Shown here piece by piece: positions 20,401 to 62,700 of a DNA stretch of 64,000 bases (position 1 is its first letter; each line of letters starts with the position of its first letter). A model generated the notes under the pieces. That model saw only the letters and a program-made list of their open reading frames with translations. It had not been told where the DNA came from and did no database searches. The stretch lies in NCBI RefSeq assembly GCF_038025025.1, contig NW_027117352.1, forward strand, positions 434,001 to 498,000, written 5' to 3'. The translations under genes were made by a program, and so were the position numbers. Source of the DNA: Phyllosticta citribraziliensis (Eukaryota).

Positions 20401-21262
20401 CATTCTCAAGCTTGACGTGAAGAGATTGGGATTCGACCGAGAAAAGGCGCAAACTACCCGCTCCGAACACCATCTGGCCCTCGACGATACCATCTACATG
20501 GAACGCTATCTCGACAACGAAACAGTCATGGAAAAGAGACAAATCTCCTGGGAGAGGAAGGCGCGCGTCAAGGCTCTGAAAGAGAGAAGAGAAAAGCTTG
20601 TTTCAACGCAAGTGAATCTTCGTCTACCAGACGCGCTCCTTGCCACTTCTGAGTACTTGTCTGACTTGGATGATAGTCGCGATTGCTCCATTCCCGCAGT
20701 GAAAGAAAAGCTCAATATCAGGGCCAAGAACCTGGACCATGAAATTGGAAGGGTTGACAGGAGGATTGCTCAGATCGAGCAGGAAAATGCTTCTCTATTC
20801 GCCGACCTGAAACAACATCCTTACAGGCTCCACTCATTGTTCATCCATCGCGGTAGTACCGGTGGAGGGCACTACCTGGTTTCCATTCGCGATTTCAAGA
20901 ACGACATCTGGCGCAACTACAACGATGAGACTGTCACAGAAGTCACCGACGTTGAAAAGAACATCTTTGGTGAAGGCGAACCCTACTCCAAGATCATCAC
21001 CACTTGCGTCGTCTACGTACGTGCCGACCTCAAATTCGGAGAGCGTGATCTCGTCGAGGCAATATGTCGCGAACCTCGACCTGAGCCTGAACCAGCTTCG
21101 ACGGACGTGGAGATGACGAGCTTCAAGGATGACTGGACCAATCTTCCTGTTACTGAGGGGGTCGAAGTCAACGACCAAAGCCAGAATACTGATGGGTGGC
21201 AGAGTACTACTGGGTACGAGAACGACTCAGTGGGAGCGGACAAGAAAAATGGTGCATGGTAA
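17494..21262 (+). CDS. UBP2: Ubiquitin C-terminal hydrolase Ubp2 (peptidase C19), spliced
   Basis: Cys box PVGIENLGNTCYLNAILQYLFT, a QQDASE motif, and His box YRLHSLFIHRGSTGGGHY..WRNYNDETV. Internal repeats and an N-terminal Cys/His-rich region are typical of filamentous-fungal Ubp2. Confidence 0.88.
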
Positions 21263-43809: not shown

Positions 43810-44248
43810 TCAGTGGATTCCGCCCTTGTGACCGGCCTCCTTGGCCTCGGCGCTACCCTTGACAAAGGTGCCATCGTCGCGACGTCCGCTCTCGCCCTCA
43901 GCCTTGTCCAAGTCAGCAGCCGGATCGTCATGTTGTGCGCGTTTCAACTTGCCAGTTCGCCGTGGGCGTGCAGGCCTCCAATGTGACCCGCGTCCTTGGC
44001 AGCGTGGCTGCCCTTCATGAAGGTTCCATCGAGGTTACGGCCGGTGGGGGCAGAGTCCTCCTTCACAAGGGTTAGTGAGGATCGAGGCATCGGGGTCGCT
44101 GTTCATACCGGGTGGTGGGCAATGTGGCCGCCCTTGGCCGCCGCCTGCTTGACCTGGATTAGGTCAGTAAGTGGATAGGTGAGGGACAGCATGGGTGACA
44201 GACATCCTCAGTAGGACGGTTAGCAAAGTTGCCGGGGTTGTCAGACAT
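43810..44248 (-). CDS. CON-10-like / KGG-repeat small stress or conidiation protein, 4 exons, 96 aa
   Basis: Exons 44248-44204, 44153-44109, 44060-43953 and 43902-43810 give MSDNPGNFANRPTEDVKQAAAKGG..GRNLDGTFMKGSHAAKDAGHIGGLH..GRRDDGTFVKGSAEAKEAGHKGGIH. Confidence 0.8.
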
Positions 44249-44640
44249 GGTTGATGGAAGTTGTAGTAGGATTGTGAGAGTGATTTGGCAGTGGAATTGA
44301 TGGAGATGTCGGGGCAAAGTGAGGTGTTTGGTTGACGAGCAGCAGAGGCATGAAACTTGTTTATATGCCTGGCTACGCGACTTCCCCATCAAATGCCTCC
44401 AAACAAGCTGGCAGCCAACTCGCAAGCAAACATGCTGATAGTTGCCATATCCCGTAGCTGTGACGTAGGCGTTGGCATGGATATCCAGGCAGTCGACCTG
44501 CCAGCGCCGCAGAGTGCCCATAGCTTCACTTCGGCTTCACGCGAGTACGCGCGACGCGTTCCCTCTCTGTGCTCCTCACCCCGCGTCGTCCCCCGTCACT
44601 CAGCAACATCAACCACCAATCATCCAACCCACTCGCCATC

Positions 44641-45945
44641 ATGTCACTCAAGCGCAAGGCAGCAGACGCCGTCGCCGCCGAGGTCAAGAAGCCCAAAGCC
44701 AATGGCAGCATCACATCCTTCTTCGGTCCTCCCAAATCCGTCTCGACGTCCACCACCGCGTCATCGACCGACCCGGCCAAAGCACCACCATCCAAATTCG
44801 ACAAGGAAAAATGGCTCGGTACCTTGAACGACGAGCAAAAGGACCTGCTGAAGCTGGAGATTGACACGCTGCACGAGAGCTGGCTCGCACACTTGAAGGA
44901 GGAAATCACGTCGTCAGAGTTCCTCAACTTGAAGCGCTTCATCAAGAAGGAAAGGGATTCGGGCAAGACAATTTTTCCACCTGAAAAGGACGTCTACTCA
45001 TGGTAAGGTTCTCCAGGCGGCAGCCCATAGACGCGATTCAACCTCTGACTCTTTCGCATCCAGGTCGCGCCACACGCCTCTCAACACGGTCAAGGCCGTG
45101 ATTCTCGGACAAGACCCTTACCACAACCACAACCAAGCGCATGGCCTCTGCTTCTCCGTGAGGCCACCGACCCCCGCGCCTCCCTCTCTCAAAAACATGT
45201 ACATTGCGCTGAAGAAGGACTACCCGTCGTTCGAGGCGCCGCCGAACAAGGGCGGCTTGCTGACGCCTTGGGCCGACCGCGGCGTGCTGCTGCTCAACAC
45301 GTGTCTGACGGTGCGCGCGCACGAGGCCAACTCGCACAGTGGCAAGGGCTGGGAGCGCTTCACGCAAAAGGTCATTGACACCGTCAACCGCACGCGCTCC
45401 AACGGCGTCGTCTTCTTGGCCTGGGGCAACCCGGCGCAGGGCCGCGTCAAGAGCATCAACGCGCAGAAGCACCTGGTGCTCAAAAGCGTACATCCGAGCC
45501 CACTGAGTGCGTCGAGAGGCTTTGTAAGTACCCACAACCCTTTCCTGTCTTTGATCCCTGTCCAGTGATGAGGTGGATCATGCTCTACGACCCCGATCCG
45601 CCATTCAGATACTGCTGAGGTTGCGCTGCGTCCTGCTTCACTCTTTCACATCAGCCATCTTGAGTTCTCTGTGTTTGTGCCTCTGGCAACGTAACCGGGC
45701 GCGCGGATGGTCTGACGAGTGACGGGACGCTGCGCATCAACCATGATTTCAGCTTAGAGAGCTCTGAGGACACCCTTCGCTCTCGTCTTCTCGCGGAAAA
45801 AAGTGAGCATTCGCTGACTTGTGGACTCGAACAGTTTGACTGCGGCCACTTCAAAAAGACAAACGAGTGGCTCAAGCAGCGCTACGGCGAAACCGGTCCC
45901 ATCGACTGGAACCTCAACGTCCCGCCCGAGAAGGCGGGCGTTTAA
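44641..45945 (+). CDS. UNG1: Uracil-DNA glycosylase, 3 exons
   Basis: Motifs ILGQDPYH, PPSLKN, GVLLLN, FLAWG and HPSPLS, then FDCGHF..NEWL..IDW after the 310-nt intron 45524-45833. Confidence 0.95.
45559..45772 (+). ncRNA. Intronic box C/D sno/scaRNA (~210 nt)
   Basis: Terminal stem tgtcc/ggaca, box C GTGATGA 45565-45571 and box D CTGA 45764-45767. An internal D' CTGA (45615) and C'-like ATGATTT (45743) close a long stem (ggttgcgctgcgtcc / ggacgctgcgcatcaacc). Confidence 0.82.
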
Positions 45946-46654
45946 TCGACCACTGAAGCGAAGAACAAACGGACCAAGGTCTCTAAATCCTTCCGGACGA
46001 CTCGTCCCTTTTCTCTTTTCCTTGGTTTCTCCTCTTTTTCCTTCTTCCGCCTTTACTTTTTCTTCTCTCTCTTTCTCCTTGGGATCAATGTTTCTTTTTC
46101 ACCTTCTCTACAAAAAGTGATGTCTCTTTCACTGCAACAAAATGACGCAAGACCAAATGGAATGGAATGGACAGGCCATCGTGCAAATGGATGCAAGCAA
46201 GCAAGCAAAAAAAGAATAGAAAGAGCGCATGAAACGAACTCACATGCTACAACCAAATCCTCACACCGAGGCCGGCCTCGAATTGGATGGATGCGGTGGA
46301 TTCAGTGTACGTAATCATCGCGCCCTTCTCGCGCGAAGACGAATGTCAACGAGACAACAAGTATCAGGATTGTTGACGCCAGTTCTCAAGATGTGGACGT
46401 GACGCTAAACGACCGCTCCTTAGTTGTAGCCTCCTCCCTCTCCCCAAGTCTACATACAGTGCCTTCATTACGCCATCTATCGGCGTAAAAAGTCCCAACA
46501 GCCTGGGCTATCAGTGTCTCCCCTCTCTTCTGGGGGTTTCTCCTTGCTTGTCTTGTCATCTTCCAAGCAAGCTCCATGGCCTCATCTACAGGAGTGAATG
46601 TCGATGAGACGACGACTGCACATCCGCCTGACTAATGACACCGCGCCCATGTTT

Positions 46655-46720
46655 CCGTTCAGGAAGCAGTCATCTATTGTAGCTGTCACGCTCGGGGAGC
46701 AGTCGTACAGCGCGCCAATT
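46655..46720 (+). repeat. 33-bp repeat cluster 1 (2 units)
   Basis: Units start at 46655 and 46688, with core aggaagcagtcatc / ggggagcagtcgt. Confidence 0.75.
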
Positions 46721-46848
46721 GCGCGGACGCACCGAGGGGCAATACAACAAGCAGATCGCGGACGAGGTCCTCTTCACCACGACGCCGGATTGCTTCATAG
46801 CCCGAGAGAGCATGTTTCCGAGGCATGACGACTAGGCAGCATCCACGC

Positions 46849-48370
46849 ATGGATCTTGGATTCGCACCAAGAGACTAAAATGCCTACCAACAAAACAACG
46901 TTTTCAGCACTGGTTGCGCGAGTAGTGAGGCCGAGCGCTGCTTAACAGCATTAGATCTCAGCAAGCTACTCTACGAATCCGCACCAAGTGGATGGGACAG
47001 TGTCAAACTGGGGTACCACGATTTTCGGGAAATCTCAATTTCCCTCGTCTGCGTTGGAATGCTCCGGAAGTCACCCAAGGTAAAATCCGAGGCCATTAAG
47101 AAAAAGGACAATTACTAACCAATCTATTTATACAGCTCGTCTCAGTAATACCAATACGGATTGAGTAAGACTAAGCAGAGTCAACAGACCTGAACAACCC
47201 AGGGCCGCCAGAGTAATACGCCCTTCTCATGACGACTATTGACGACGAGACAATCGTTGTGCCTCTTCGCCTAATTCAATTTGGCTCAAGCCCAGTTTGG
47301 GATTATACCTATGATAGGCCCACAATGAACGCTGGACTGCGGTTCTCCAACGTCCTCGTACGACAGGCCAAGAATGGAGGCAAAGAATGGAGGCAAAGAA
47401 TGGAGAAAGCACATGGAGAAACTCAAGGGAGCGCCGGTCCTCATCTGTCAAGATGTTATCCCGCTCATGCGCCTGGCCAATGGCACTACGCCAATGTATA
47501 CTCCGAGAGTATTCAACCACCTGTTCGTCTTGAGTGTCGTGGAGAACCGCAACACCAATCGGGAGCCCACCGGTCCCCGATTCAGCGATCTCGGCATCCT
47601 CGTCGACGAGCCACTGGACGTGGCACACGGGCTGCAACAGACACAAGGCACTGCGGAGCTCAAGCTTTCTGAAACTCTCCCAGTGGATGACTTTGAAATC
47701 CAGGAACCTGCTGACTTCATCGTCCCGCAAATTGATACATCCGGAGCCATGGAGGAGATTGACGACGAAGTCGTCGACGCAAGACTCGTAAGGTTCACCG
47801 AGAATGATCACCAGACTGGCCACCGCAGAGAGGAGCGTACAGAGAGGTGAACTCCTCGAGGAACAGCAGGCCATCCGAGATGATGACGACGACGACGAGG
47901 AAAGTCCCAGCGAGGACGACGGCTCCGAAGAGGATCAGGATCAGCCCTTTAAAAGATCTTGGCCAGCTACGTAGGCCACACCGTCCCTGGTGCGCTCCAA
48001 TGAGCAAGGTCACGACGGGACAAACGTATACGCTGCGTATATCGACCGCCGCCGTGCCTGGCAGTCCGTCTGGAGCTGCTCATGTGGACGAGCAGAGGGC
48101 AGTCTCAGTTGGACCTTCCATCATCAGTGCATGCACAGCATGTTGCAGGACGCCGATTCGCTAGGCATGCAAGTTGCAAAGCTCGAACTTGAGCTGAACG
48201 CAGGCGGGCTCGACGAGGAATATTTTGACCACTTCACACAGTTGAAAGGTTGCGGGCTGTTGAGGGGGACGAGGGCGGGCTGATAGATGCTGAATTTCTA
48301 TCGCTACCCATGCCGTGCGCGCCTATCCCCGTCCAAGTACGGAATAACGATTCGCGACATCAAGAGTGCC
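46849..48370 (+). pseudogene. DEDDh exonuclease-family gene copy A (5' part, truncated after motif I)
   Basis: Coding-like frames with an intron at ~47080-47135 and a 13-nt duplication frameshift at 47370-47405. An acidic linker is followed by AYIDRRRA..EGSLS..QCM..LELELNAGGLDEEYFDHF..LIDAEFLSLPMPCAPI, homologous to copy B. Confidence 0.65.
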
Positions 48371-48406
48371 AGAGTTTGCGCACATCATTCTGCCGCTTGC
48401 ACGGGC

Positions 48407-48511
48407 ACTCCTAAGGAGCAGTCGTCCTCTATAACAGACACGCTCAGGGAGCAGTCATCCACTATGACACGCACGTCTAGGGAGCATTCATCCGCCGCAT
48501 CAGTTACGCCT
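48407..48511 (+). repeat. 33-bp repeat cluster 2 (3+ units)
   Basis: Units at 48407, 48440, 48473 and (48506). Confidence 0.9.
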
Positions 48512-48524
48512 ACAAGAGTGTCTG

Positions 48525-49512
48525 TCAGTGGTCACATGAACAGTGGTGGTATGCCTGGTCCTTCGTTTCAATCAACCTCTTATGTCGTACGTGCTCTTCA
48601 AAGGTGCGGTGTTCTGTCCTGGCGCCACCTTTGTAGATGGCCTTGCAGTGGCCACATCGAATCTGCTGATCTTTCGCTGGCATGTGACGCAGAGCATGGA
48701 AAAATCGCTTGCAAAGCGTCGACATCCCTAGGTCTTGAGCGAGAATTTGTGCATCCTCCAGAGACATCATCAGTCTGGATTGGGTCCTCGAGGACTTGAA
48801 CCTGTACGTGGTCGACTAATTTTCTTTGAGTCCGTTAAGGATGTTCTCGCTGGCGTAGTCTTTGACTTGAGCTTTACCGTTGGAGCGATAGAAACCCGCA
48901 GCGGCAATCATGCAGGCGACGAAGCAGCTCTTGCTATCAGCTTCAGCAGTGAGCCTTCGGTTGACGGGATCTTCGCCGGCGAAACGCATGCGGACGCTTT
49001 GAAAAGGCATGAAGATGACCTGTTCCCGGTCTTTGTCCAACGGTAGGCTAAGCGGTTCTCCGAATAGACGAACAAGATGCGGCTTGACAGCGTGTTTGTA
49101 TCCCTTGGGGAGGACGGGTTTCGGCACCAACGCTCTCTTCTTTGGTGGCGGTGTTGCTTGCTCGGGGGTTGTCTCTCTCAACTCGGCTGCGTCGTTGTCC
49201 TTTCGCTTCTTGCCCTTCGTTGTTGTTGGTTGGGTTGCAGTGGGCCCAATTTCCTGAGATCGTCTCACATTCGCCACAAGTCTCCCGCTCGCTGCCATCG
49301 TGATTTATGAAGTTCTGGAGGGGCTGCTCGTGGTAACCTGCCCTGCAGTACTTCATTTGCTGTGCCGGGCTTGAGACGTTGGAATCGCAGAATAAGCACA
49401 GTCCTGTGTCACGGGAGAGCCGATGAACAGCTCGAGGCTGCGCGCATTGCCTGCATTGGAAGAATTGTTGCCCAGAGTTGGACAGAAGTACGTCGGACAA
49501 TGTAGAAGTCAT
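48525..49512 (-). pseudogene. Tandem Cys zinc-finger + basic linker + APSES/KilA-N-like + C2H2-like protein (one frameshift, one TAG)
   Basis: CRQC..P..CLFC and C..H..P...F..TCGEC, then a 1-nt frameshift near 49268 into KGKKRK/PPPKKR. MIAAAGF...(TAG 48816)...MMSLEDAQILAQDLG resembles APSES helices, followed by CGHC..FEEHVRH. Confidence 0.6.
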
Positions 49513-49617
49513 TGGAGAAAAGCACAATGATGTATGTGGACAAGGATGCAGGGCGTTTCTGAAGTGGCGAAAGAAGATGGAAAGGAGTTCAGAGGTAGTG
49601 GTCTGCGAGGTGTTGAG

Positions 49618-49722
49618 GTGCCTTGGGAGCGGTCATCCGCGGTGACTGTCACGCCCAGGGAGCAGTCGTGGGCTGTTGTGGTCACGTATATGGGGCAGTC
49701 GTCCGCTACGTCAGTTACGCCT
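49618..49722 (+). repeat. 33-bp repeat cluster 3 (3+ units)
   Basis: Units at 49618, 49651, 49684 and (49717). Confidence 0.9.
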
Positions 49723-50153
49723 GTCCGCTGCACGAATAGAGAGTATTCACGTATTTGAGTTATCTACCCACATTCATATGCTCATCTATAAGCAGAGGGT
49801 AACTACACATGCCGGTCATTCTCCGGGGTAGGTGACATCTTTGCAGTGAGAGGGTAAACGGTGAGATGAGAGTGTGACTTGAAGAATTGAGCTGTAGATG
49901 AGTATTCGCAGAATTTAGGTGCGCTTGAAGAAGTTTTATGGGGATTACTTCACAGCGGCGTCATTCACTTTCGGTTTCACAGCCTTTCACAATCTTTCGC
50001 GAACTTAAAGTCTTGACCGTTCTTTCCCACCGCAGACCTTTCACGAAGTCCTCCCCACACAGTCCTGGAATTTTATCCTCACCCATCTTACATCTACAAC
50101 CATCCTCCTTCCAGCCAGACTCCTAAATTTTTACGACCTTTCCTATTACCAAG

Positions 50154-51846
50154 ATGGACCATAATACACTTGCAGCAGGTATTGATGAGTGGGCCAACGG
50201 AGCAAGGGACGATGACGGTTTCTACGATAGGCTCATTGAGCTCACCCAGGCGATTACCGACGTTTGGAACGTCGGACCCAGGCCCCGTCCAAGGCCTCTC
50301 ACCCCCGGTGCAAGTGTCGAAGAGGACGTGGAACCCACCACAAGCGCGGTGTCGTCGGCCGCTGATCCCCACCCACCAAGTCCTGCACGTGGACTGTCGT
50401 CTTCTTTCTCGCATGGAAGTCCTGCTCTGCCGCCTTCTCCGCAGCCTCTGGGGCTTTCGCCGTCTTTTCCAGAGGGAACACCAGCTGCGTCACCTCCACA
50501 ATCGCCCAAGCAGTCATCCCCAGAGCCTCCTCTGCCACCATCAACGCCGGCGCGTTCTGAACTCCACAGTACAACCCCAACTGCGGAGCCTCCACCATCA
50601 CCTACTCCCTCGGTCCCCCGCGCAAGCTCTGCGGACCAGTCCCTCCCACCACCGCCTCCCAAGACACCTTCCTCAAAGAAGAAGAATGGAAGACGCGCTG
50701 AACAAGTATGTTTAGCTCTTGATCACTCATTTATTTCTTCAGCTCACATGTACGTAGGGACCTACACACCAAGAGTTGACGCATTCGGCGACCGCCCTTG
50801 TCGCCTCGGCCAAGTTCCCCGAGTCATCCATGAGGTTTTACGACCAGGGCCCCAACATCGTTGACTGTTGTCGGCAAGTGCTGCAGAGCACTGCCGATAG
50901 CACAATTGCCGGCGAAGTCACTGCAGAAACGCTGAAAGATCTCAAGTTTACGCGGGATGTCCTCGTTTTCCTCTCCAAGATTTTTGGAGAGCCTGGTGTC
51001 AAAGCCGTGCGAAAGACCGTGGGAATGCTGCGCAACAGCACTGGACAAAGGCCAAATTTCCAGCCAGCCATCACCGAGAAGCCTTCCAACGTCCCGGCCG
51101 AGCTCCAGCTGTGCCTGAATCTGCTCCACGCCAACTTGCATCTATTTGCCGAGCTGAAAAATGCCGAGCTTTTGCCTTGCAAATCTGCGACACGCGTTGC
51201 CAGAGTCTGGCACCAAATCAAGTTGCGGCTCAACGCCAAAGACCCGGAATATGTTGAGTTCATCAAGAATGATCCTGACATGGTCATGCTGAAGAAGCAC
51301 AAGCCAAACCGCAATGACGACCATCTTTGCATGGGCTGGTTGGTCCTGTAGTACCACCCAGACTCGAGGAGAGATGGTATAATTGATCAAGACGAGTTTG
51401 ACCTAGTGCGAGACCGGATTGTGTACAAAATTGGGGCTGGAGAGCACCTGATGTGCTTTGAAGAGCGCCTCGGAGATGAAGTCTTCTTGTTGTTCGTTCA
51501 AGGATGGAAACGGCTGTGAGTTAATCCCACGATCATGAAACGCCTTCGTACTAATTAAAACAGCTTTCGCAAAGGCCGTCAACACATCACGCACGCAATT
51601 GTCAAGAACTTTCTGCTCCGCGCTTGTCCCGACCTTAGTACCCTCCTCGGTCGCCTTCGCCCGGTCCTCCAACAGCTGGATTTCGAAGGGGGCATTATGC
51701 CCACTTACGGTTTTGACGCCATTCATGCCCTCAAGGCTGACCCTCTCTCCCTGTACACGCTCATGCAGACTACCAACAACGGCCTTGAAGCCAATTCCTC
51801 TCACCTTGCCCTTGAGGACGGCACAGACGGCAACGACCATGCTTGA
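50154..51846 (+). pseudogene. Unknown-family protein copy 1 (3 exons, single in-frame TAG at 51349)
   Basis: ATG at 50154, introns ~50706-50757 and ~51515-51563. The frame stays open on both sides of the TAG to a TGA at 51844-51846. Homologous to 53337-54421. Confidence 0.72.
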
Positions 51847-52030
51847 ATGAGAGATGTTTGAGGTAATCGCGACCTGGCCTGCCGGGGCAGGCTACTGCAC
51901 GGTCCAAAACTCAGAGCTGAGGCGAGGGAGGTTATTGAAAACGGGAATGATGAATTCGAATCGCTGAATCCGTAGCGAAGACTGAAAGGAAGAAAGCTTT
52001 ATTTCCAGCCGCCTGAAATAAGATTCGTGC

Positions 52031-52190
52031 CAGTTACCCTCCTTCCTTGAACAAAGCCATGTGTTTTGAGCAAAAAGCGAAAATCGAGTGCCGAAGTCAG
52101 ACCCTCTCCTTCAGTAAAACCATGTCTTTTGAGCGAAAAGCCAAAAGCCAAAAGCACAGTTAGACCCCCCTCCCTCCTAAAGTAAAGCCG
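52031..52190. repeat. ~63-bp tandem repeat, about 2.5 copies
   Basis: aaagccatgtgttttgagcaaaaagc / aaaaccatgtcttttgagcgaaaagc, with repeated agt(t/c)a..ccctcc heads. Confidence 0.75.
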
Positions 52191-52245
52191 CCCCGAGAAA
52201 AATGTGGAAAGCAGACGCCGATTTCGTCACCCTCCTGCCATACGT

Positions 52246-53150
52246 CTAGGAGACTTGGCAAACCTTGACCATGATGTGGTACATCATAAGTGTATCGCCC
52301 GCGCTCGTGTGCGCAGTGATAGAATCTTTGCATTTGCAAAGGGCCTGGTGGACGTTTGACTGTGCAAATGACGCTTTCTTTTCCATTTTGCCTCTGAGTC
52401 GCTTGACGAGCATGAGCAAGTCGATTCACAGGAGCGGCGCCCCATCCACCCAGCTTCCGTAACCTAGGATATGCGTTGTGGAGTGATCGTAGCCGGCCTT
52501 GAGGACTTTCTGCCGTATGCTTGAGATTGTGACACCGCCAGACTTCCGTCGGTGTTTCTCGACCGTGGCTTCGAAGAGTTTCCGTGGCCCTACAGTTGCA
52601 AGCTTGGATAGAGCAAATTCGACGAGGCGCTCCTTGGTGGGCCATATTCAACCCAGGGGGCGTCGACAATGACCGTTCCGTCCATAATGTCACGGATTGT
52701 GACCTGCAGCAGAATGGGCGCATATGGAAGAGGCATCGCTAGAAATTCAGTATCTAGGAGCCACCCCTGGTGGCTTTTGCCGCCGTGTATCTTTTTCAGG
52801 AGCTTGAAATGGCGACTGTACTCTCTGTCGAGGTTGCTGGCTTTAAGCTCGAGCTCAGTCGAACTGGTCTCGATGCCTAAGTCTTGCGGGTCATGGTGTT
52901 GCAACATTTTTTCCATGCATTGGACATGTTGAGGGCAACTCAGGCTGCCTTCTTGCCGCTCGTAAGGGCAAAGGGCGACGAATTGGCATGCGCGTCGACG
53001 GTCAATGTAGCTCGCCTGTATGAATAATGGTCTCTCACTAAAAGGCGCCCACCAAGGGAAGTTCGGCCTCGCTGGGCACGTTGAATCTTCATCTTCTTCG
53101 CTTTCAGCCTCTTTAAGAGCTTCAGATGGAGTGCAGACTCCTCTCGTCGA
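52246..53150 (-). pseudogene. DEDDh 3'-5' exonuclease gene copy B (3' part)
   Basis: Motif I WLLDTEF (52746-52754), motif II-like GYGSWVD, IDLLMLVKRL, and motif III AHTSAGDT (52294-52311). Frameshifts and a TGA interrupt it. Confidence 0.72.
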
Positions 53151-53179
53151 GATAATAGCGTTCAGGATACCCTGGATAC

Positions 53180-53311
53180 AGCTACTGTGATGAACGACAG
53201 CTCCCTATGTGTGAATGTGATATTAGATGACTGCTCCCTAGGCGTAAGCGTCACAGTAGATGACTGCTCCCAAGGCGTAAGCGTCACAGCAGATGACTGC
53301 TCCCAAGGCTC
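53180..53311 (-). repeat. 33-bp repeat cluster 4 (4 units), bracketed by an 8-bp inverted repeat
   Basis: Units start at 53311, 53278, 53245 and 53212. AGCGTTCA 53157-53164 / TGAACGCT 53329-53336. Confidence 0.92.
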
Positions 53312-53336
53312 CATGTTATGATAAGAAATGAACGCT

Positions 53337-54421
53337 CGTGAACGTGGCAGCTGTTCGCATCCCAAAAAGTCCGTGTTCAGGAGCGATGCGTGGACATGCT
53401 GCGTGTGCCGGAGCAGGTGGAGACAATTATGCATCTCAACCGGGGCAGCGTCGGAGCCATCGGCCATGATCAAGTCACCTTGCCTGTAGCCGCTACTGCA
53501 ACGCAGCAGAGCCACGGTCTTTTGAAGGGACTTGATGCCCGGCATACCGAACACCTTCGTTGCGAAGATGAGAAAATCTCTGGCAAACTCCAGGTCCTTG
53601 AGCGTCTCAGCGGTCACCTTGCCAAGCAGATCTTCCAGCATGGCGCGACTGCATTCCACCACAGTCTTGCCGTCGTCGTAAAACCTGAGGGACGAGTTCG
53701 TGAACTTGGCTTTTGCAACCATGGAAATAGCATCTTGCCTCCACTTTTCGAGCTCAGGTGACTATGGAAATGTTAGCTAAATGAATCAAGAAATCACTTA
53801 ATAGTAGATTCCTACCTTTGGCTGGCTTGGAGGCTCGCTGGTACCAGGAGGGTTGTGAGGAGGTGAGGGCGTATGGGTTCCCAATGATGGAGTCTTGGGG
53901 CGTTGGGAAAGCTCGCGGTCCGATGGCGGGCCACGAGAAGGCGAGGGCGCAAAGCGATCATCAAACTCTGGAGTTGTGGGGCGATGGGACGGCTCGCGCT
54001 CTGACGGAGGGCTACGACGAGGCGAGGGCGCGGGGGGATCCAACTCGGGAGTCTTGAGGCGTTGGGACGGCTCGTGGTCTGGTGGAGGCGCATGGGGGTC
54101 GGGAACGCCGAAAGTTGCAGTATTTCCAGAGGGAGCGTGGCTCTTCGGAGAGGCGAAAGGGGATCCAGTCGTGAAGTGAGCGACAGAAGACGACGGGCTC
54201 ACGGATGAGCGCAGACGAGGCTCACTGGCTGGAAGTTCGTGGTCGACCTCCATCTCTTCCGTGTGGTCGCTCAGGTGAGTCGGGCAGCGGGGTCTGAAAC
54301 CCTTACCCCCGAGTTCCATCAGGTCATCATAAAGAATGTGGACCCTGCAGTCAAACTCGTTCTCATTGGTTCCATTGTTGATGCACGCTTCCATTTCCCT
54401 GATGGCAGAAAGGCGGTCCAT
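53337..54421 (-). pseudogene. Unknown-family protein copy 2 (3'-truncated)
   Basis: MDRLSAIREM.. N-terminus, Pro-rich repeats and a phase-0 intron at ~53762-53814. AKFTNSSLRFYDDG..GKVTAETLKDLEFARDFLIF aligns with copy 1. Confidence 0.72.
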
Positions 54422-54899
54422 TTTCCTGGTCGACGCGTTCGGAGGAGAGGGGAGGTTGATAATCGTGGGTTGGCAGTGAGTAATTTGAAGAGACGGTGAT
54501 GATGAGTGAGGATAGAGCAAAGAAAGAAAAGAAGAAAGTGGGAAATGCAAGCTAAGCAGTGGCATTCGACAATGGGAACCGAAGTGAATGATGGCGGGTC
54601 ACGGCGCTACGGCAAGGTCTGATGAGATGTTTTCCGCCGACCAAGTCGGTAGGCTTGAGGTTTGGAGAAGAGGCCTGCACCATCAACTCCGCTAACACCA
54701 AGCGCCAAGCGCCAAGCGGTGTCAAGAGCAATTGAAACTTCCGGCACTACGGCCGCGTCTAAGGAGCGTTCGTGTGCTGTGTATCAACAAGCCTGGCCTT
54801 CTTAAGGTCTGGAGGCCTATGTACACGTTAGCCGAAGAAACCAAGGGGTGATCAATAGCTAATCATACCTTGCCTACGCTTCCATTACTTTCCTTAGTA

Positions 54900-57110
54900 G
54901 TAGAAGGCCTCTTAGAAGGTATTGGTAGAGGGGATTTGCTAGCGGGAGTCTTTCCAGCATATCGTGAAATGCGTGCGATTGCATGGCACGGATACCTTCC
55001 ACGTCAAATAAACTTTGACGGTTTCTAATTGATGGACGGTTATTTCAACGGTGAAGGGAAGAGACACTTTGTCGGGGAAGAGGCTGGCACAGGTGTCGCC
55101 AATTGCCAAATATCTGGGCACTCCCTCCTCTGTATGTCCGTGGGCTCCGTAGAACAGCGTTGAGCCGCACTGCTCGCACGCTTCTTATCTATGCCTGCTG
55201 CTGTCCTTCTTGAAATAGCGTCGAAGGATCGTTTCAATTTTGCAGGGGGCCTTCTCGCTGGTCTCGATGGACTCATCGACGTATTCCAGGATTGCGTGTC
55301 GGTATGAAACCTGTCTGGGTAGCTTGTGCAGGCATTTCTGGCACCAGACAACATCTATCGAGGCAACGCACAGGTCTTTGAACCACTGGGCGACGTTTTT
55401 CCAGGCGTATGCGGCAGCGAACCGCTCGTCAGGCTGCGCGCCGTTCTCTCGGTTGTATGGTCCTCGCCGGAGCCGGTCACGGAATGTGTCAATGTCCTTC
55501 TGGATCATTGACGACATTGGAAGCTCTGCGAAAGCCTGGAAAGTTGTTGCCAAGTGCGAGGGGGACGTGGCCTGCATCTTGTGCAGCTCGAGGACGCAAG
55601 TGAGCTTGAGCAAGCAAGACGTCAATGTGGCAAGAGTTTCTGCCATCGTACTTTGGCCCGCTGGTGTTCGAGCTGAACTTCCACAGGGCCTGCCGCTGCT
55701 GCAACTGCCCCATGTCCCGCACCAGTTCTGCCAATTTTGTGGCTTGCCTTTCGACTTCGCCTTCGTTGGGGCATTTATCCGACTCTGGACTTGCAATGGT
55801 CAAGTCGACAAGTTTCGCCGTCGGTCTGACTGGTGAGGGCAGGCCGGCGAGGACTGTGTCCTCGTTGCCGCTTTCTACTGCCAGGGACTCGATGTCGTTG
55901 TGCGCTGGCATGGTCAATCCATGTGTGTTATACGAAAATGCTTTCTTGGGACTTACCTTGAAGCAGGGTCTTCCACACCAAATCCAAGCTGTCCGGGGAG
56001 GAGGAAATCCGACGGGGGATCTTTAATTGGGTTAGTCAAGTGATATCATGCTAGGAAATTTCTCACATACCTGTCCCAGAAATAGCTCTGGGCTTTCATC
56101 CACATCCTGCTTCTTTGGGGACTTGAAACTGTTTGCCTGCTGGAGTTCTCTTCTCCGAGCTGAACTCGACCGTCTTCCACAGCGACAATGGACTATTGAC
56201 CACCAAGAAACGCGAATACTATTCTGATGCCCCGCGCAGATCTGTCTTCGACATCCCTTCACCGACGCTTCTGGCGCTTGTAAGGGGACTTCAGGTTCGA
56301 AGAGAACCCTCCACGTGACGCTCAACGTAGCGGGGAGAACATCGTGTTCTCGAAAGCGTGTTGGCTTGGGGGGGTCTTGATGTCGAAATCGGGCTTTCAA
56401 AACGAATCTGGAACTCAATCGTAAGCATTCATTCGGATTGCACGCTTGTCAGTCTTACCAGGCTTCTTCTCGGGAGTCTCTGGGTCGGTTGTAGACGATC
56501 TAAAGCCATGCGATCTACCGGGCTTTGTGGGAGTCTCAAAGTTGAAGTTGAAGTCAATCTTCCCTGGGTGAGCGATCTTGGGGAACTTGTGCGGTCGACC
56601 TAGGCTATGCTCCTTCGGCTCTGGAGTGTGAAAGCTGCCATCACTGATTGGATCAGGGTCTTTGTCGGCGGGCTTTTTGGCATCAGGAGACTCAGCCTCC
56701 GTATCGGTCTGAATCCCCCGGGAGGCTTGGAATGCTCTCCAGTCAAAACCTGCCTCTTCAAGTACGGTGAGAGGCATGCCGTTGTCAACTGCAGCTAGAC
56801 GTTTCATCAGCCTCAAAGTTCTTGACTGGCGAAAACTACTCACTTTTGATGGCCATGGACAAGCAATTGCCAGCTTGCTCACTGGTCTTGAGATGAGAAA
56901 CCAGCCAAGTCAGGTCCTGGAGCGATGTGTTAGCAGAACTCTTTTTTCGGTGTATGAACCAACAACCTTCTCGAGGACCTCAAGCTTTTCCAACGCCTCG
57001 TGCTCCTTCCGGATCCTTTCCTGGTGAGCAAGTCTCTTGCTGTTGACATCGCTGGCCAAACTGGCCAGTTGCTCTTCCTTGGACATGCTTTTTTTCATTT
57101 CGCCGGCCAT
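54900..57110 (-). pseudogene. Spliced gene with N-terminal coiled coil and C-terminal USP/papain-like protease domain (degenerate)
   Basis: Introns ~56021-56070 and ~55905-55956 join the frames correctly. Cys-box-like GRNSCHIDVLL, two CxxC pairs (CQKC, CEQC) and His-box-like THFTICWK. Frameshifts, and stops at 55185 and 54939. Confidence 0.55.
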
Positions 57111-57339
57111 GATAGTGTGAGGGAAGTGAGGTCGAAGGTTGGAGGTAGAGGGCGTGAGGGCGTTGCTCGTGGCGGTCCAAGAGGCGATGCAAAGCTAGGG
57201 TGAATGGTGCAAAGGACATGGGAAGTTTGAGCAGCAAACAGTGTCGCTGAGCGACACGACCTACGGCCATTCACTTCCCATTCACTTCCGCCGCTCGACT
57301 CTGAGTCACCATCTACCCTTTCCCACTCGGCTCTGCAGC

Positions 57340-57437
57340 GCCCGCTCATCACCGCCCGCTCATCACCGCCCGCTCATCACCGCTGGCCTGCTTTTGCAAA
57401 CTCCCCAATCTCAACTCTCAACTCTCAACTCTCAACT
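57340..57437. repeat. Short tandem repeats (14-mer x3, 7-mer x4) in a divergent promoter
   Basis: gcccgctcatcacc x3 and tctcaac x4. Confidence 0.85.
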
Positions 57438-57502
57438 CCCACTCTTCCGCAAACCTTCCATCACCACACACTTACCGTCAACCCTTCGGAAACAACTACA
57501 AG

Positions 57503-57980
57503 ATGGATCGTCACACTATCAAAAACGCCATGAAGGAGTACGCCCATGGTGCGCGCAACAGGGAAGAATTCGAGGCCAGGATCCGTGACATTTTCGAAAT
57601 CATCAAGGAGGCTCGCGACAAGGGCCCCAAGCCGCGCTCCCCATCTCACTCGAGCAGCCCCGCGGCCAAGATGGAATCGGGCGCTGAGGGCTCCGCTGCT
57701 GGACCATCCGCGACCGAGACCCCCGTCGCCGACCAGGGCGCCTCCGCGCAGCCGACGACCTAGACGGTGGTGCGTCCCCGGACACAACGACGGCCAAGCG
57801 CCAGAGCGGCAGAAAGCCAAACTGAAGGTAAGCGTTGCTCGCCCCACCACTCTACTGTCTCGTTGGCTCACAGGTCTGCAGGTGCTGAACGGCGAAGATG
57901 GCAATGACGGCGCCGACGACGGTGTGTCCGCTCGCTCACGGTCCACGATCAAACACACGGCTCGACAGAGGCGAGGCTAG
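57503..57980 (+). pseudogene. Unknown-family protein copy 3 (N-terminal domain only recognisable)
   Basis: MDRHTIKNAMKEYAHGARNREEFEARIRDIFEIIKEARDKGPKPR aligns without gaps to copies 1 and 2. TAG at 57761 and a gtaagc intron donor at 57828. Confidence 0.62.
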
Positions 57981-58264
57981 AGGAAGGAAAGGCAGCTGGA
58001 AAGTGGAAAAAGACAGGTCTACAAGTGCGCATGGAAGGAGAGAAAACACACCATATCATCCGTAGCCCTCCTGTCCACACACAGCCCTCGGACAAAATCC
58101 ATGCCCTCTGAACCCAATCATCAAGAACAGTCCCCCGTCTCCAAGTGAAGAATGAACACGTACGCAGCTCCCTTCCCTCCCACCAACACTCAATGTACAA
58201 GAGCCATGATCGTCCTCCACCGCCGCGCCAGTATGTCTGCGGCTGCCAGTTCACGAGCGCCGTT

Positions 58265-58350
58265 TCGCCTGCAGAATGATCGCCTAACATCACAGTCACG
58301 TCTTGGGAGCTTTCAGTAGTCACAGCAGTCACGTCTTGGGAGCGTTCATG
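58265..58350 (+). repeat. 33-bp repeat cluster 5 (3 units)
   Basis: Units at 58265, 58298 and 58331. Confidence 0.8.
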
Positions 58351-58479
58351 GAACGGTCATCTCTCAGATTGGCTTCGAATGGAGTCTTCAGTTCTCTCAT
58401 CTGATTTCGTCAGGGAGGCAATGAAGAAGGACAATGAGAGAAATCCATCCCCTCCCCGACCCTGAAAAGGTTCTAGGGC

Positions 58480-59778
58480 CTAGGGGGACGGCGGGAGGGA
58501 AAGGAAACAGAAGGCCATCCCAAAGGCCGCGACCGAAAACAGACAAAAGAACAAAACAAAACGAACCAGGCGCGCTCCCCTCCTCCCCCCCACCTCCAAA
58601 AGACACTTGACGAGCCAAACGGCCGTCATCTCTCCTGCCGTGTCCGCGGCAGACGCAGCAACAAACGAGGCCAGCGAAATGCCGGCCAGCCGTAGCTGGA
58701 GAAGCGCCCGAGAGCGCAAGTCGGCCTCCGGGGAGACCAACACCAAGGAAGAGGACGGAAGGGGAAGAAATGCAAAAGCCAGCCCGAAGGCCGCAGCCGT
58801 GAAAAGACAGAAAACGAACAAAAACGAACGATCGACCTCCCCTACTCCCCCCTCCTCTTCCCCATCCACACGCCTCTTTCGCCACCAAACGGCGGCCTCC
58901 TCTCCTGCCGCGTTTGCGGAAAACCCAACAGCAAACAATGCCAGCGACACGCCGGCTAGTCGCAGCTGGAGAGCTGCTCGCGCATGCAATTTGGCCTCCT
59001 GGGAGACCAACTACCACCACACAGCACCGCAAGCTAACCACACCAGCAGCGCAGCGTAGAGCGTGGCCCAGGGGACAGAGTCCGGGGGACAAGACGCAAG
59101 CGTGGGCACGAGCGAGGTGCGCGGAACAAAAGGAGGGACAGAGAGCGAGCGAGAGAGCGCGGGCGTGGTGTTACTGTGGAGATTGTCAGTAAGCAATCTC
59201 AGCGTTGAACGGTGAGATTTGAATGTTGACTTACCTCTGCCAAAGCGGGAGCACCGCAAGGAGCGCGTAGGCTAGTTCCATGGTCCCGGCGACAGACATG
59301 TCGGCGGTGGGCAGGGCGCGGGCACAAGCGAGGAGAAGCAGCGAGGCTTGGTAGTATGGAGGCGGCGGCACCGAAAGCTCACTCCGTTAGGGAGGAGAAG
59401 GAGATGTTGGCAGATTGCCTGGCCAGCTGTTAGTTGGCTTCGCGAGACGAATGTGCAATAAACATACCGGTGACAGGGACGCCGCAAATGCTGCTGCGGC
59501 TCAGGCGCGGCCTTCCGGGAGACTCTCCCCCACCAAAAACCACCACCAACAATGCACACCGCCAGCGCGACGCTGAGTGCGACCCGGAGGGCCGTCAGGT
59601 AAGTCAAGCCAGCGCGAAGCCTGGCCGGACGCGCCCCCCGGGTGCGCTCCTGGGAACGTCGTTTCGAGAACTGCCAGCTACCATTAGCATGATGCCCAAG
59701 ATGTGGAAGTGGAGAACCATCTGTACTTACGGGCAGCCAAACTGGTAAAAACACGCAGGCCAAAATAGCCGCAAACAT
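58480..59778 (-). pseudogene. Putative polytopic membrane protein with an internal 270-nt duplication (5' end uncertain)
   Basis: Canonical introns ~59175-59234 and ~59428-59467, hydrophobic segments and an in-frame TAG at 59011. Duplicated unit VSxEAxLxxRAxLQLRLAGxSLA. Confidence 0.4.
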
Positions 59779-62700
59779 TTTCTGCCCAGTTGGCACAGCC
59801 GGCACGGTGCGGACCGGGGGAGAGAGAGAGATTTGGAGAGAGGGAGGGAGGATGGCCGAGAAGGGCGCGGAGGGCGGCGGGCAGCAGCTGGCAGAGGCGG
59901 GTCGTAGTAATGGGTGCTGCCCGAGAACAAAGAGGTGCTTCAAGCCATGAGTGTTTGATGATGGAGAAGAGAGAGAGAGAGGAAGAGTCGGGGGGATGGC
60001 AGATTCATACATACCTGGGGTGTCGGGCCTCCTCGGTCGCGTTGACAACGACGGCAGCAGCAACAAGAGGCGGAAATAGCACTTGCTGTCCGGTCGTCTG
60101 CCCACCTCCGTCCGGTCTGGTGGCAGAAGGGAAAGAGGAAAAAGGCTCCTGTCGCCCGCCCGTGAGAGGCATCCATCGCGAGCGTCAGCCAGCCTGCGCT
60201 GGATGCTGGATGCTCGAGACGATGAATGACGCCCTCTTTCTCCCCTCTCTTTCCCCGACGCCCAAGTGCTTCTTTGCCACCCTTGCCACGAAGCGCATGC
60301 TCGAGTGATATCCGCGTCTTGCAGTACGGTGAGTGAGCTCTTTGCACGCAAACAAATCCCTCATCAGCAGCAATCTGCTGCGCTGCTGCTCTTGCACCGG
60401 CCATCGCAACGGCAAGAGAGAAAATGAGCACAACAAAAAATGCGTCGAGGAAGGAAAAGCGGCATCCTGTGTCTTGCCTGCCCTCTGCGTTTGCATCTTT
60501 CATCCTCCCAGAAAATTGCCGGAATCTGGGGTGGGATGCGAGGAAAATGGTGGAAGCTTTGCAAGCGGCCTTGCATGGCACGGCACGTCTGGGCAACGGG
60601 CGTTGTTGACAAGGGGAATTTCAGCTGCAGAGAGCATTGTCAGGACCACCCAGTAGCGCTCCATGAGAACATCGTAGGAGGATAGCTGCAGGGAGAGGAG
60701 GTGTGGTCGCAGAGGGCGGTCAGAGGAGGCATGGAAGCTACCCACCTACCTGTACCTTGCCAATGTAGCCGTGTACCCTCCCCATCTCCGACGCCTCCAT
60801 AGCCGTGCACCAACAGCCATCTTGGACGTCAAATCCAACCCCTACTCACGAAGCCCACCACCCCCTGGCGAACCCGTTTCCCCGTCTCCACACCTCGCTC
60901 GCTCGCTCGCTTGCCAACGGCCCCTGCATATGCATGCACTCGCTCGCCTATCCGGGCAGCGCACCCCATTGGCTGTGCGATGCGTCTGGCTGCGAGATGC
61001 ACGCTCGCCACATGCGCACGCGGGCTGCAAGATGCGTGCGTACATGGCTGATTGGCGGCGGTTACCGCACGCACGCGGCGATGGGGGACGAGGTAAGGGG
61101 CTGTTGGCGAGACGGCTGCCTTTGGGCAGGGTGGCAGACGAGTAGCTGGGGGTTGGTGTGCAGCGAGGAGGAAGATTGTGTGACCAGCGGCTACGAGACC
61201 AGAGAAGATGCGCGGTGCTTGTGGTGCACGAAAGAAAGCCAGCGTCGAGTAGGTGGCGTAGACAACCTGCGTAAGCGAGCATGTAGACGAAGGCCCTGGA
61301 AGAAGAAGAGCGGCGAGCAAGATGGAGCGGAAAAGAAAGAAGAATCGTCATGTCCACACGAGATGCGTGGCTGGCTGAGCGCGACAGTGGCTGTTGTAGG
61401 GTTGGTTGATCTGCAAACGCGCTACTCCACGGCCTGCTTTTGTTGGCCGGCTGCTTGTTGATTGCTGCGCGGCTGTCATGTTACAGATATCGATTTTGTC
61501 CGTCGCACGCTTTATGCGTGGACGTTTGATGACGACTCGAGCTTTGGCGTGGGAGGGCTGCCAGCTTCCTTACATAGCGGCGCTTGCATTGCTCGCATTC
61601 TCCGCCGCAACTCAAGGATGCTTGCTCGTTGGAGACTCGAAGTTGATTTGATGGCGGACTTGCGGTTGTAGTACTGTTCCATACAGCCAGCTTGGCCAGA
61701 GAGCGATGACGAAGAAGAGAACGCGCCTTGGTTCTGTCCAACGTGACCGAGGGTCGACAACCACCGACGTCTGCACACCAAGATTTTTGCTAATTTTCCT
61801 AAACAAGAAAACTCGTCAACTTCTCACGCCATCCGTCAGTCTCCTTGCCTTTGCGTATCCAAACGTTGCCACAAGAAAACCTGGGCGGCAGAAGAGAGGC
61901 GTCACACAGCGCGCAACGATGGACTTGCATGCGTCGACGTCGAGCAGAATGTGAGCAGCGCGTCGCCAATCGCCAGTCGCCAATCTCGACGCACCGTTTA
62001 CAGAGCGCAGCCCAGCCTTGTGCTACCGTCGTCTACGCCATGCCGTGTTCGATGCGCGCGCACAGATACTTAGGTCGGCGTCTGCGTCTGCATCTGCATC
62101 TGCGTCTCCACCTGCGCGCCGTCCCGTCAAGCCGTCTGGCCCAGTAGTGTTCCCGGTCGAAGGCAGGGCGACGCAGGCGCATTGACAGCAAGGCGTGTGC
62201 AGCGGAAGCGTTTACCTGGTCTGCCGTCGACACCCCTTGCGGCCGGAGCTGCCGGGTCGGCGCGCCGCCGTATCGCTTATTTCTTTTGCGTCCGACGCGT
62301 CGGGCCAGAGGCGCGGCATGATCAAACGAGGCTCCAGTCCTGTCTGAGGCGAGGAATCAGTGTTGGCGAGGAGGCGCGGAGAAACAGCAGACGCAGGGCT
62401 TGGGGGCGCAAGTGCTGCCCGATTGCGAGCCGTCGGCAGCAAGGCTCAGACGTGGTGCACGAGACGAGAAAACGGCACGTTGCGTAGACGAAAAGGGTCG
62501 AAAAAGAAGTAAAAGGATACGCAGGTGTAAGCAGCCGTTGGGGCGAATATTCAGCCCGTGCTCGCCAAAGGAGTAGGCGTGCATGGCGTGTCTCGGAACA
62601 TATTGAAAAAGCGGTTGAGGGCGCAGAACAAAGTCGTTTCTGGTAAGACGACGACGTTTGAAAAGGTGCGCCTCTGGTGTTGCTTTTTCCCGACCCGGCG

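Follow-up and report, generated by a model that had tools for sequence, protein, structure and literature searches.

The window analyzed here, a 64,000-nt stretch of the Phyllosticta citribraziliensis genome (contig NW_027117352.1, positions 434,001 to 498,000), contains an island of broken genes of unnamed families downstream of UNG1, interspersed with arrays of a 33-bp repeat, here termed R (coordinates below are those of the window). The reading we prefer, and hold with about even confidence, is that the island is a lineage-restricted, fast-evolving Phyllosticta-like cluster, formed long ago when a three-gene unit was duplicated in tandem and inverted orientation, and now decaying. The unit would consist of an all-alpha orphan protein, a candidate DEDDh-like exonuclease with its own N-terminal domain, and a ubiquitin-specific protease (USP)-like Cys/His protein, and a small BED-zinc-finger gene sits amid the copies. 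In this genome the copies decay by truncation, frameshift and nonsense codons, so that the island is probably inactive and without present function. Some 12 kb publicly annotated as a few 'hypothetical proteins' is here recognized as a set of broken paralogs, which corrects the record. The analysis also defines three or four protein families, all very rare and found together in Phyllosticta, and a discrete 33-bp-repeat element marking rearrangement breakpoints.

Two gene families recur in the island as diverged paralogs. Comparison of the region with itself by tblastx and blastn confirmed this claim of the first-pass annotation, an earlier reading made from the sequence alone. DEDDh-A (48026–48351) and DEDDh-B (52689–53021) share 37–48% amino acid (aa) identity, the N-termini of three orphan genes match one another, and C-terminal portions of the orphans reach 59% aa identity. 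In the blastn comparison, only R and internal tandem repeats were matched. The absence of DNA similarity between paralogs that are 37–59% identical in aa indicates that the duplications are old. Introns, noted in most of the genes by the earlier reading, have canonical signals in orphan-1, orphan-2 and orphan-4, at the same position in all three, and in the USP-like gene.

Taken together, the minus-strand order of the window and the fused gene models of relatives point to a recurring unit with the order orphan, DEDDh-like, USP-like. The minus strand reads USP-like, orphan-4 fragment, orphan-2, R, DEDDh-B, and the plus strand has orphan-1 after DEDDh-A. The public model P0004 (P. citribraziliensis) fuses orphan-2 to DEDDh-B, and P0008 (a relative) fuses the DEDDh-A N-terminus to an orphan-1 ortholog; the DEDDh-A N-terminal domain also heads P0008. 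P0006 and P0012 (Phyllosticta citrichinensis) contain an orphan-2 ortholog (91% identity), a DEDDh-B stretch (15/15 residues identical), a DEDDh-B 3' region, and a second USP-like paralog, 33–39% identical to the window copy. Of the earlier proposal that the island is the nested, deleted remains of at least 2–3 diverged multi-gene copies, the part supported by the order on both strands and by the P0006 and P0012 models is that the island is best taken as the rearranged, truncated remnants of no fewer than 2–3 old copies of one multi-gene unit.

Every island gene carries a lesion. The DEDDh-A frame is shifted by a 13-bp tandem duplication at 47365–47405 (detected by Tandem Repeats Finder; P0008 matches in two frames), and changes twice more near 48245 and 48340 (tblastx, tblastn). 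The USP-like gene has a 1-nt frameshift near 55617 within its Cys-box-like motif, a TAA at 55185–55187, and several frame changes between 56100 and 56400. Lesions differ by species, orphan-1 being interrupted by a TAG at 51349 here and by a frameshift near 50980 in the species of P0008. Contigs of sequencing runs X1 and X2 cover 52582–53030 and 47134–47974 (DEDDh-A), respectively, without differences from the window; the first stretch includes the frameshift near 52640, the second the 13-bp duplication. Run X2 was taken as RNA-like since its contigs are spliced, no listed run being on record as RNA; its coverage is absent at 49.4–52.4 kb and 53.6–57.2 kb, where it is uninformative on expression. 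Public models P0001, P0004, P0006 and P0008 place implausible introns over in-frame stops and fuse neighboring pseudogenes into 'hypothetical proteins', and these annotations mask the decay of the locus.

The orphan family is genuine but very rare. A two-sequence profile retrieved 11 proteins from 1.84 billion cluster representatives, and 9 are true members: six from P. citribraziliensis or close relatives, and three diverged, apparently full-length proteins, P0005, P0009 and P0011 (386–552 aa). Read in a single frame, orphan-1 is collinear with full-length P0005 over 329 aligned positions, except for the TAG at 51349–51351, which is Q in P0005 and which public model P0001 excises as a 210-nt 'intron'. 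The first orphan-1 intron is canonical (53 nt), and two further in-frame stops are read, from a GTGAGT start and the family alignment, as falling in the second intron. Orphan-2 lacks the last ~230 residues of the family. A word-based protein search with the family alignment, in which 8000 candidates were scored, returned P0005 only, and was probably swamped by proline-rich words. The AF2 model of the orphan protein is all-alpha (mean pLDDT 55.9, core 70–91), and Foldseek found no PDB structure matching it at E ≤ 0.001 (best TM 0.11–0.15).

Two other sequences retrieved by the profile, P0007 (2428 residues) and P0010 (1247 residues), were rejected as relatives. They consist of a ~66-residue repeat, match the orphan profile (E of 1e-25 and 1e-13) via weak stretches, 21 and 11 in number, and draw spurious Pfam matches with 0 stretches; their appearance is that of translated tandem repeats, probably satellite DNA. 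Within orphan-2, the 81-bp tandem repeat (53889–54088) encodes a 27-residue proline-rich unit; the close relative P0002 has more copies of it, and a contig of run X3 skips 102 nt at this place. X3 derives from a relative, with contigs 85–99% identical to the window.

The R arrays lie at the breakpoints of these genes. R sites were found 6–20 nt from four truncation points, namely the 3' ends of DEDDh-A and orphan-2, the 5' end of DEDDh-B, and the orphan-4 fragment. Seven R sites are spread along 46.4–58.4 kb (Table 1). Tandem Repeats Finder detected arrays at 48411–48493 and 53196–53309, and a repeat search added sites at 46.4, 46.7, 49.6 and 58.3 kb. That these clusters are genuine, as first described, is indicated by paired cores at 33-bp spacing, with 8 matches in the window and none in any of 100 shuffles. 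A 13-unit R profile (nhmmer) gave 13 strong matches, all within 46656–58329, and four weaker ones (E 0.003–0.033), of which three are in the island (58330, 54755 and 46399). The fourth lies outside, on the minus strand near a GDE1-type gene (23936–23955, E = 0.003), in the vicinity of two one-mismatch cores (24158–24167). All 6 exact cores in the window are inside arrays, and allowing one mismatch gave 17 cores vs 6.4 expected. Arrays J3 and J4 have similar right ends ('..CAGTTACGCCT'), and J4 and J5 have similar left ends ('GGWGCCTTGGGAGC'), aligned in register. These common ends identify the arrays as copies of a discrete ~106-bp three-unit element.

Each R unit consists of a conserved 10–12-nt core, GGGAGCAGTC(AT), and a variable spacer. 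Column entropy is ~0 at the core and 1.0–1.7 bits in the spacer. An open frame (T-P-R-E-Q-S-S-x-V-T-x) runs through the repeat, but entropy by codon position is 0.86/0.89/0.94, without 3-nt periodicity or third-position bias, and R as a coding repeat was therefore rejected. Public gene models include J5 as the C-terminal tail of orphan-2 (P0002); given the equal entropy of the codon positions, this translation is not evidence of coding. A conserved core without codon periodicity suggests a protein-binding array. The arrays are 71–80% identical in DNA, while the adjacent genes retain no DNA similarity, so that R either arose after the duplications or is constrained. We favor constraint on a putative binding core. 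Folded as single-stranded DNA, the arrays were no better than shuffled sequences (z of -0.1 to -1.25). In a metagenome scan, two R cores 33 bp apart were found at at least 119 loci, and none of the 119 listed fit the 13-unit profile (E ≤ 0.01); these loci were dismissed as chance or unrelated repeats.

The spacing of 33 bp, about three helical turns, would align the cores along the same side of the double helix. We read the arrays as putative protein-binding sites, and the obvious candidate binder is the BED-finger protein, whose gene lies between two arrays. Exchange or repair at the arrays may have produced the gene-truncating deletions. Iteron-type arrays of plasmid origins resemble R in having 2–4 direct units, a conserved 10–12-nt core with a variable spacer, and a period near a whole number of helical turns. 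Unlike iterons, R is eukaryotic and chromosomal and has only a candidate binder, and the analogy is one of form alone. A bolder version, which we consider improbable, is that the R element and the BED gene constitute an undescribed recombination system, in which arrays serve as cassette boundaries for duplication, inversion, swapping and deletion of the unit. If true, this would be an integron-like or foldback-like shuffling, in a eukaryote, of a multi-gene conflict module in Dothideomycetes.

Both the order of the genes and their strands agree with the first-pass annotation, with the addition of the orphan-4 fragment on the minus strand beside a weak R site. Housekeeping genes end after UNG1, as had been stated: ordinary Pfam families occur in 1–45.6 kb (kinase, RPAP1, TBCC, UCH, GDPD/ankyrin, CRAL_TRIO, MFS and UDG), and Pfam-recognized open reading frames (ORFs) cease from 45.9 kb. 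In 45.9–58.5 kb, only 1 of 131 ORFs of at least 55 aa gave a Pfam match at E ≤ 0.01 (zf-BED), and in 58.4–63.1 kb none of 12 ORFs of at least 150 aa did at E ≤ 1e-5. GC content ranges from 0.50 to 0.62 across the window. Relatives of the island genes are named 'hypothetical protein [Phyllosticta citrichinensis]' and 'uncharacterized protein [Phyllosticta citribraziliensis]'. Searching the region with Rfam (E ≤ 0.1) and a tRNA scan gave no match and no tRNA gene. A literature search found nothing describing the island; R and the orphan, DEDDh-like and USP-like families lay outside the scope of that search.

Table 1. Positions of the island genes, R sites and flanking features in the 64-kb window (UTR, untranslated region).
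Feature	Position	Strand	Description
UDG domain of UNG1	44933–45565		Pfam match
R site J1	46399–46423	-	One weak unit, in the UNG1 3' UTR intron 46307–46423; nhmmer E = 0.033; GT..AG joint 46306->46424
R array J2	46654–46726	+	2 units; in the transcribed UNG1 3' region (X2 contig 46424–46840)
DEDDh-A pseudogene	47229–48400	+	N-terminal domain, acidic linker, Cys/His-rich stretch, ExoI-like 'LIDAEF'; cut at R after ExoI
R array J3	48406–48511	+	3 units and 'TACGCCT'; 6 nt past the end of DEDDh-A homology, 14 nt from the BED gene stop
Zinc-finger (BED) gene	48528–49512	-	N-terminal Cys-rich ORF (ATG 49512), probable frameshift near 49260, 160-codon ORF, TAG 48816–48818, 96-codon ORF
R array J4	49617–49722	+	3 units and 'TACGCCT'; ~100 nt upstream of the ATG that starts the zinc-finger gene
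Orphan-1	50154–51846	+	Exon 1 50154–50704, intron 50705–50757, exon 2 from 50758, second intron near 51515–51560
DEDDh-B pseudogene	52249–53150	-	Lacks the N-terminal domain, R at 5' edge; ExoI-like 'LLDTEF'
R array J5	53182–53312	-	3.5–4 units; between truncated orphan-2 and 5'-truncated DEDDh-B
Orphan-2	53313–54421	-	Exon 1 with 81-bp coding tandem repeat; intron position as in orphan-1; exon 2 ends at R
R site J6	54755–54781	+	One weak unit; nhmmer E = 0.024
Orphan-4 fragment	54800–54943	-	End of exon 1, intron, start of exon 2; ~140 nt; tblastx to 50631–50774
USP-like pseudogene	54942–57110	-	At least 4 canonical introns; Cys-box-like 'NSCHID'; CxxC pairs; His-box-like 'THF'
Orphan-3	57503–57763	+	N-terminal part of the family only; divergently oriented to the USP-like gene; tblastx, tblastn
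R array J7	58297–58352	+	~1.7 units; relative X3 has one extra canonical 33-nt unit
Right-flank membrane-protein gene	58357–60624	-	Spliced transcript; five CT..AC joints in X2 contigs, indicating five introns

The enzymatic names given earlier to the DEDDh and USP-like genes are based on motif resemblance, and searches with profiles and structures did not recover either family. With the usual definitions of the DEDDh Exo motifs, DEDDh-B displays Exo-like motifs in the order D-x-E, D, H-x4-D, spaced by ~100 and ~50 residues, only when read across one frameshift and one stop codon: after the frameshift near 52640 come an ExoII-like 'ILGYGSWVD', the TGA at 52426–52428, and an ExoIII-like 'HTSAGD' (H-x4-D). 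In that reading, copy B resembles DEDDh 3'-5' exonucleases (RNase_T, PF00929; fungal DEDDh_C, PF21762) in motif order and in weak, sub-threshold Atlas leads (RNase_T 0.76, DEDDh_C 0.75). Unlike known enzymes of this type, neither DEDDh piece matched a Pfam family or, by phmmer, a PDB sequence at E ≤ 10. The DEDDh-B ORF had no viral relative in IMG/VR, and a word-based protein search at near lengths gave 0 hits among 92 candidates. Both copies are broken, which prevented fold prediction.

The USP-like gene resembles ubiquitin-specific proteases (peptidase C19, UCH, PF00443) in motif only, as judged by the usual Cys-box and His-box definitions: it has a Cys-box look-alike, two CxxC pairs and a His-box look-alike. 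In the window copy, read in three frames and by alignment to P0006, the TAA at 55185–55187 is followed by the CxxC pairs and 'THF'. The look-alikes are clearest in the open paralog P0006, which has the His-box-like 'GGHFVLYW...W-M-Y-N-D'; at the Cys-box position the window copy reads NSCHID and P0006 reads NSYHID, with Y for Cys. Unlike true USPs, the gene gave no UCH match in Pfam, a profile search of PDB returned no USP, and the genuine UCH gene of the window (ORF 18569–21259) aligned to it in hhalign with a probability of 0.09. The USP-like alignment had no viral relative in IMG/VR, a word-based protein search with P0006 residues 205–492 returned P0006 and P0012 only, and the AF2 model was unusable (pLDDT 36).

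The label APSES/KilA-N, given earlier to the zinc-finger gene, was not upheld. Neither its ORF nor the read-through matched such a family in Pfam at E ≤ 1, the PDB search gave one chance-level match (E = 1.4), and Atlas contained no related family. The 96-codon ORF (48528–48815, minus strand) instead matches zf-BED (PF02892; E = 2.9e-4, 21.2 bits against a cutoff of 20.6), the sole Pfam match of the island. The gene's own Atlas model has a pLDDT of 0.42.

hAT transposases bind DNA through a BED finger, located N-terminally, and hAT elements have short terminal inverted repeats (TIRs) and an 8-bp target-site duplication (TSD). In the island the BED finger is C-terminal, no DDE/RNase-H-like transposase or hAT dimerization domain was found in the 131 ORFs, and no TIR pair accompanied by a TSD was seen. 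The R repeat forms 33-bp phased arrays, unlike the short subterminal motifs of hAT elements. The resemblance to hAT transposons and to CGGBP-like hAT-derived BED proteins (PMC8097297) consists of a small BED-finger protein and nearby repeated motifs that are potential binding sites.

That the island represents what nesting and deletion have left of a selfish element with several genes, with R as its terminal or subterminal repeats and the BED gene as the remnant of a hAT-like transposase or another DNA-binding protein, seems unlikely to us. Such an element would fit the BED finger as the only Pfam match, the recurrence of the gene set in diverged copies, and the presence of R at gene breakpoints and at at least one other transcribed locus. 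It would also fit the discrete common ends of the R arrays in both orientations, which include an inverted pair (I1) with 83-nt arms that are 75% complementary. Joining the sequences that flank the inverted R pair 48406/53309 yields no single gene. The first-pass annotation had reported no DUF3435 recombinase, DDE transposase, Rep/Hel or reverse transcriptase, and this was confirmed, as Pfam detected none of these in the 131 island ORFs. A mobilizing enzyme was likewise absent from a set of 26 island ORFs, DUF3435 was absent from 83 ORFs of at least 150 aa outside the island, and no TIR/TSD pair bounding the island or any unit was found. The copies are 37–59% identical, so that any spread was ancient. 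The island also lacks a signature of repeat-induced point mutation (TpA/ApT of 0.57 and (CpA+TpG)/(ApC+GpT) of 1.27, compared with 0.50–0.54 and 1.21–1.34 in the flanks). Of the 30 bins that divide 44001–62000, 28 have at least some X3 coverage, and among the X3 joints listed none bridges an empty site between UNG1 and the right flank. Transposon families are expected at hundreds or more of cluster representatives; the families here have ~9 worldwide.

Multi-gene class II elements do occur in Dothideomycetes, such as the 14-kb ToxhAT (PMC12506042). Starship (PMC11162782) and ToxhAT are like the island in being fungal and carrying several unrelated genes, ToxhAT being also of similar size; unlike in these elements, a DUF3435 'captain', DUF3723 and a hAT transposase were not found in the island, and defined ends and presence/absence were not seen. 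The evidence gathered thus does not support a selfish or mobile nature of the unit. The earlier interpretation is half supported, since the multi-copy unit holds, and the observations behind it were largely correct. If the unit or the R element occurs at many loci, it would represent a new kind of fungal multi-gene element.

Comparably doubtful is the view that the unit is a working, or recently working, module of conflict or allorecognition type, which would combine a nuclease with a deubiquitinase-like protease and a partner protein, and of which the window would hold dead copies. Modules of this kind evolve fast and go through repeated duplication and death, and live copies would be found in relatives or elsewhere in the genome. 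Consistent with this are the full-length members P0005 (P. citribraziliensis), P0009 and P0011, the open USP-like part of P0006, fast divergence within one genus (apparent orthologs 66–83% identical in aa), independent lesions by species, variation among relatives in the number of coding tandem repeats, and the coverage of DEDDh-A by a contig of the spliced run X2. However, Pfam, Foldseek, AF2 and hhalign confirmed no biochemical identity for the members, and P0006, with Y for the Cys-box cysteine, need not be an active protease. If intact copies are functional, they would constitute a new nuclease-plus-protease module. It is highly improbable that the lesions are assembly or sequencing errors in intact genes. 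Several are single-base frameshifts, which assemblies can introduce, but the X1 and X2 contigs reproduce the 52640 frameshift and the 13-bp duplication unchanged, although possibly from the source strain. Public models P0001 and P0004 avoid the same stops via implausible introns, and truncations at R cover hundreds of codons, which is impossible as base errors.

The decaying three-gene cluster that we prefer resembles segmentally duplicated, lineage-specific fungal clusters decaying to pseudogenes, with old paralogs in tandem and inverted order, truncations, frameshifts, nonsense codons, surviving introns, and lesions that differ between sister species. Unlike such clusters, all families of the island are unnamed and extremely rare, and a dedicated repeat element of 33 bp is found at their breakpoints. 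Several points weigh against this reading. The conservation of the R core is partly an ascertainment effect, the units having been found via the core, and not all truncations are R-adjacent, the end of orphan-3 lying ~530 nt from the nearest R. One X2 contig has an R-like 44 nt with unrelated flanks, so that R is present outside the island too, which fits a dispersed element equally. The unit order in relatives comes from gene models that are fusions, rather than from DNA. The X1 and X2 contigs are identical to the window and may come from the source strain, so the lesions are not independently confirmed. The BED match is marginal, scoring 19.1 bits on the 259-residue read-through, both the DEDDh-like and the USP-like identities are invisible to Pfam and PDB sequence searches, and hhalign did not detect the USP-like one either.

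The right-flank membrane-protein gene differs from the island genes in being open over its joined exons, so the earlier claim that all genes were disrupted holds for the island and is not confirmed here. The joined exons form one open frame of 351 codons over three splice junctions (~311 codons from the first ATG), and the product has four hydrophobic stretches; no Pfam family was found on its ORFs. Its transcript contains, in the 3' UTR, a ~270-bp tandem duplication (58479–59016, 70% identity). An X3 contig skips 58462–59583, which indicates that the 3' end of the gene is not conserved. Further to the right, a 5.3-kb X2 contig covers 60750–64000, extends past the window, and is CT..AC-joined to the membrane-protein exons; no ORF of this stretch matches a Pfam family or resembles a protein, and the stretch may represent a long non-coding or leader region.

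On the left flank, the C-terminal exon of UNG1 (from 45835) is joined over a 311-nt intron in spliced X2 contigs, and the transcript runs ~900 nt beyond the stop, with a 117-nt GT..AG intron (46307–46423) in the 3' UTR. This 3' region (45523–46840) contains R units both inside the UTR intron and in the UTR itself. Over 44001–46000, X3 has two sets of contigs of unlike depth and divergence at the same places, the housekeeping flank included, so that two strains or haplotypes of a relative seem to be present in the run. Perfect microsatellites (14-bp x3.2 and 7-bp x4.3) occur at 57339–57438, in the short spacer from which the USP-like gene and orphan-3 diverge.

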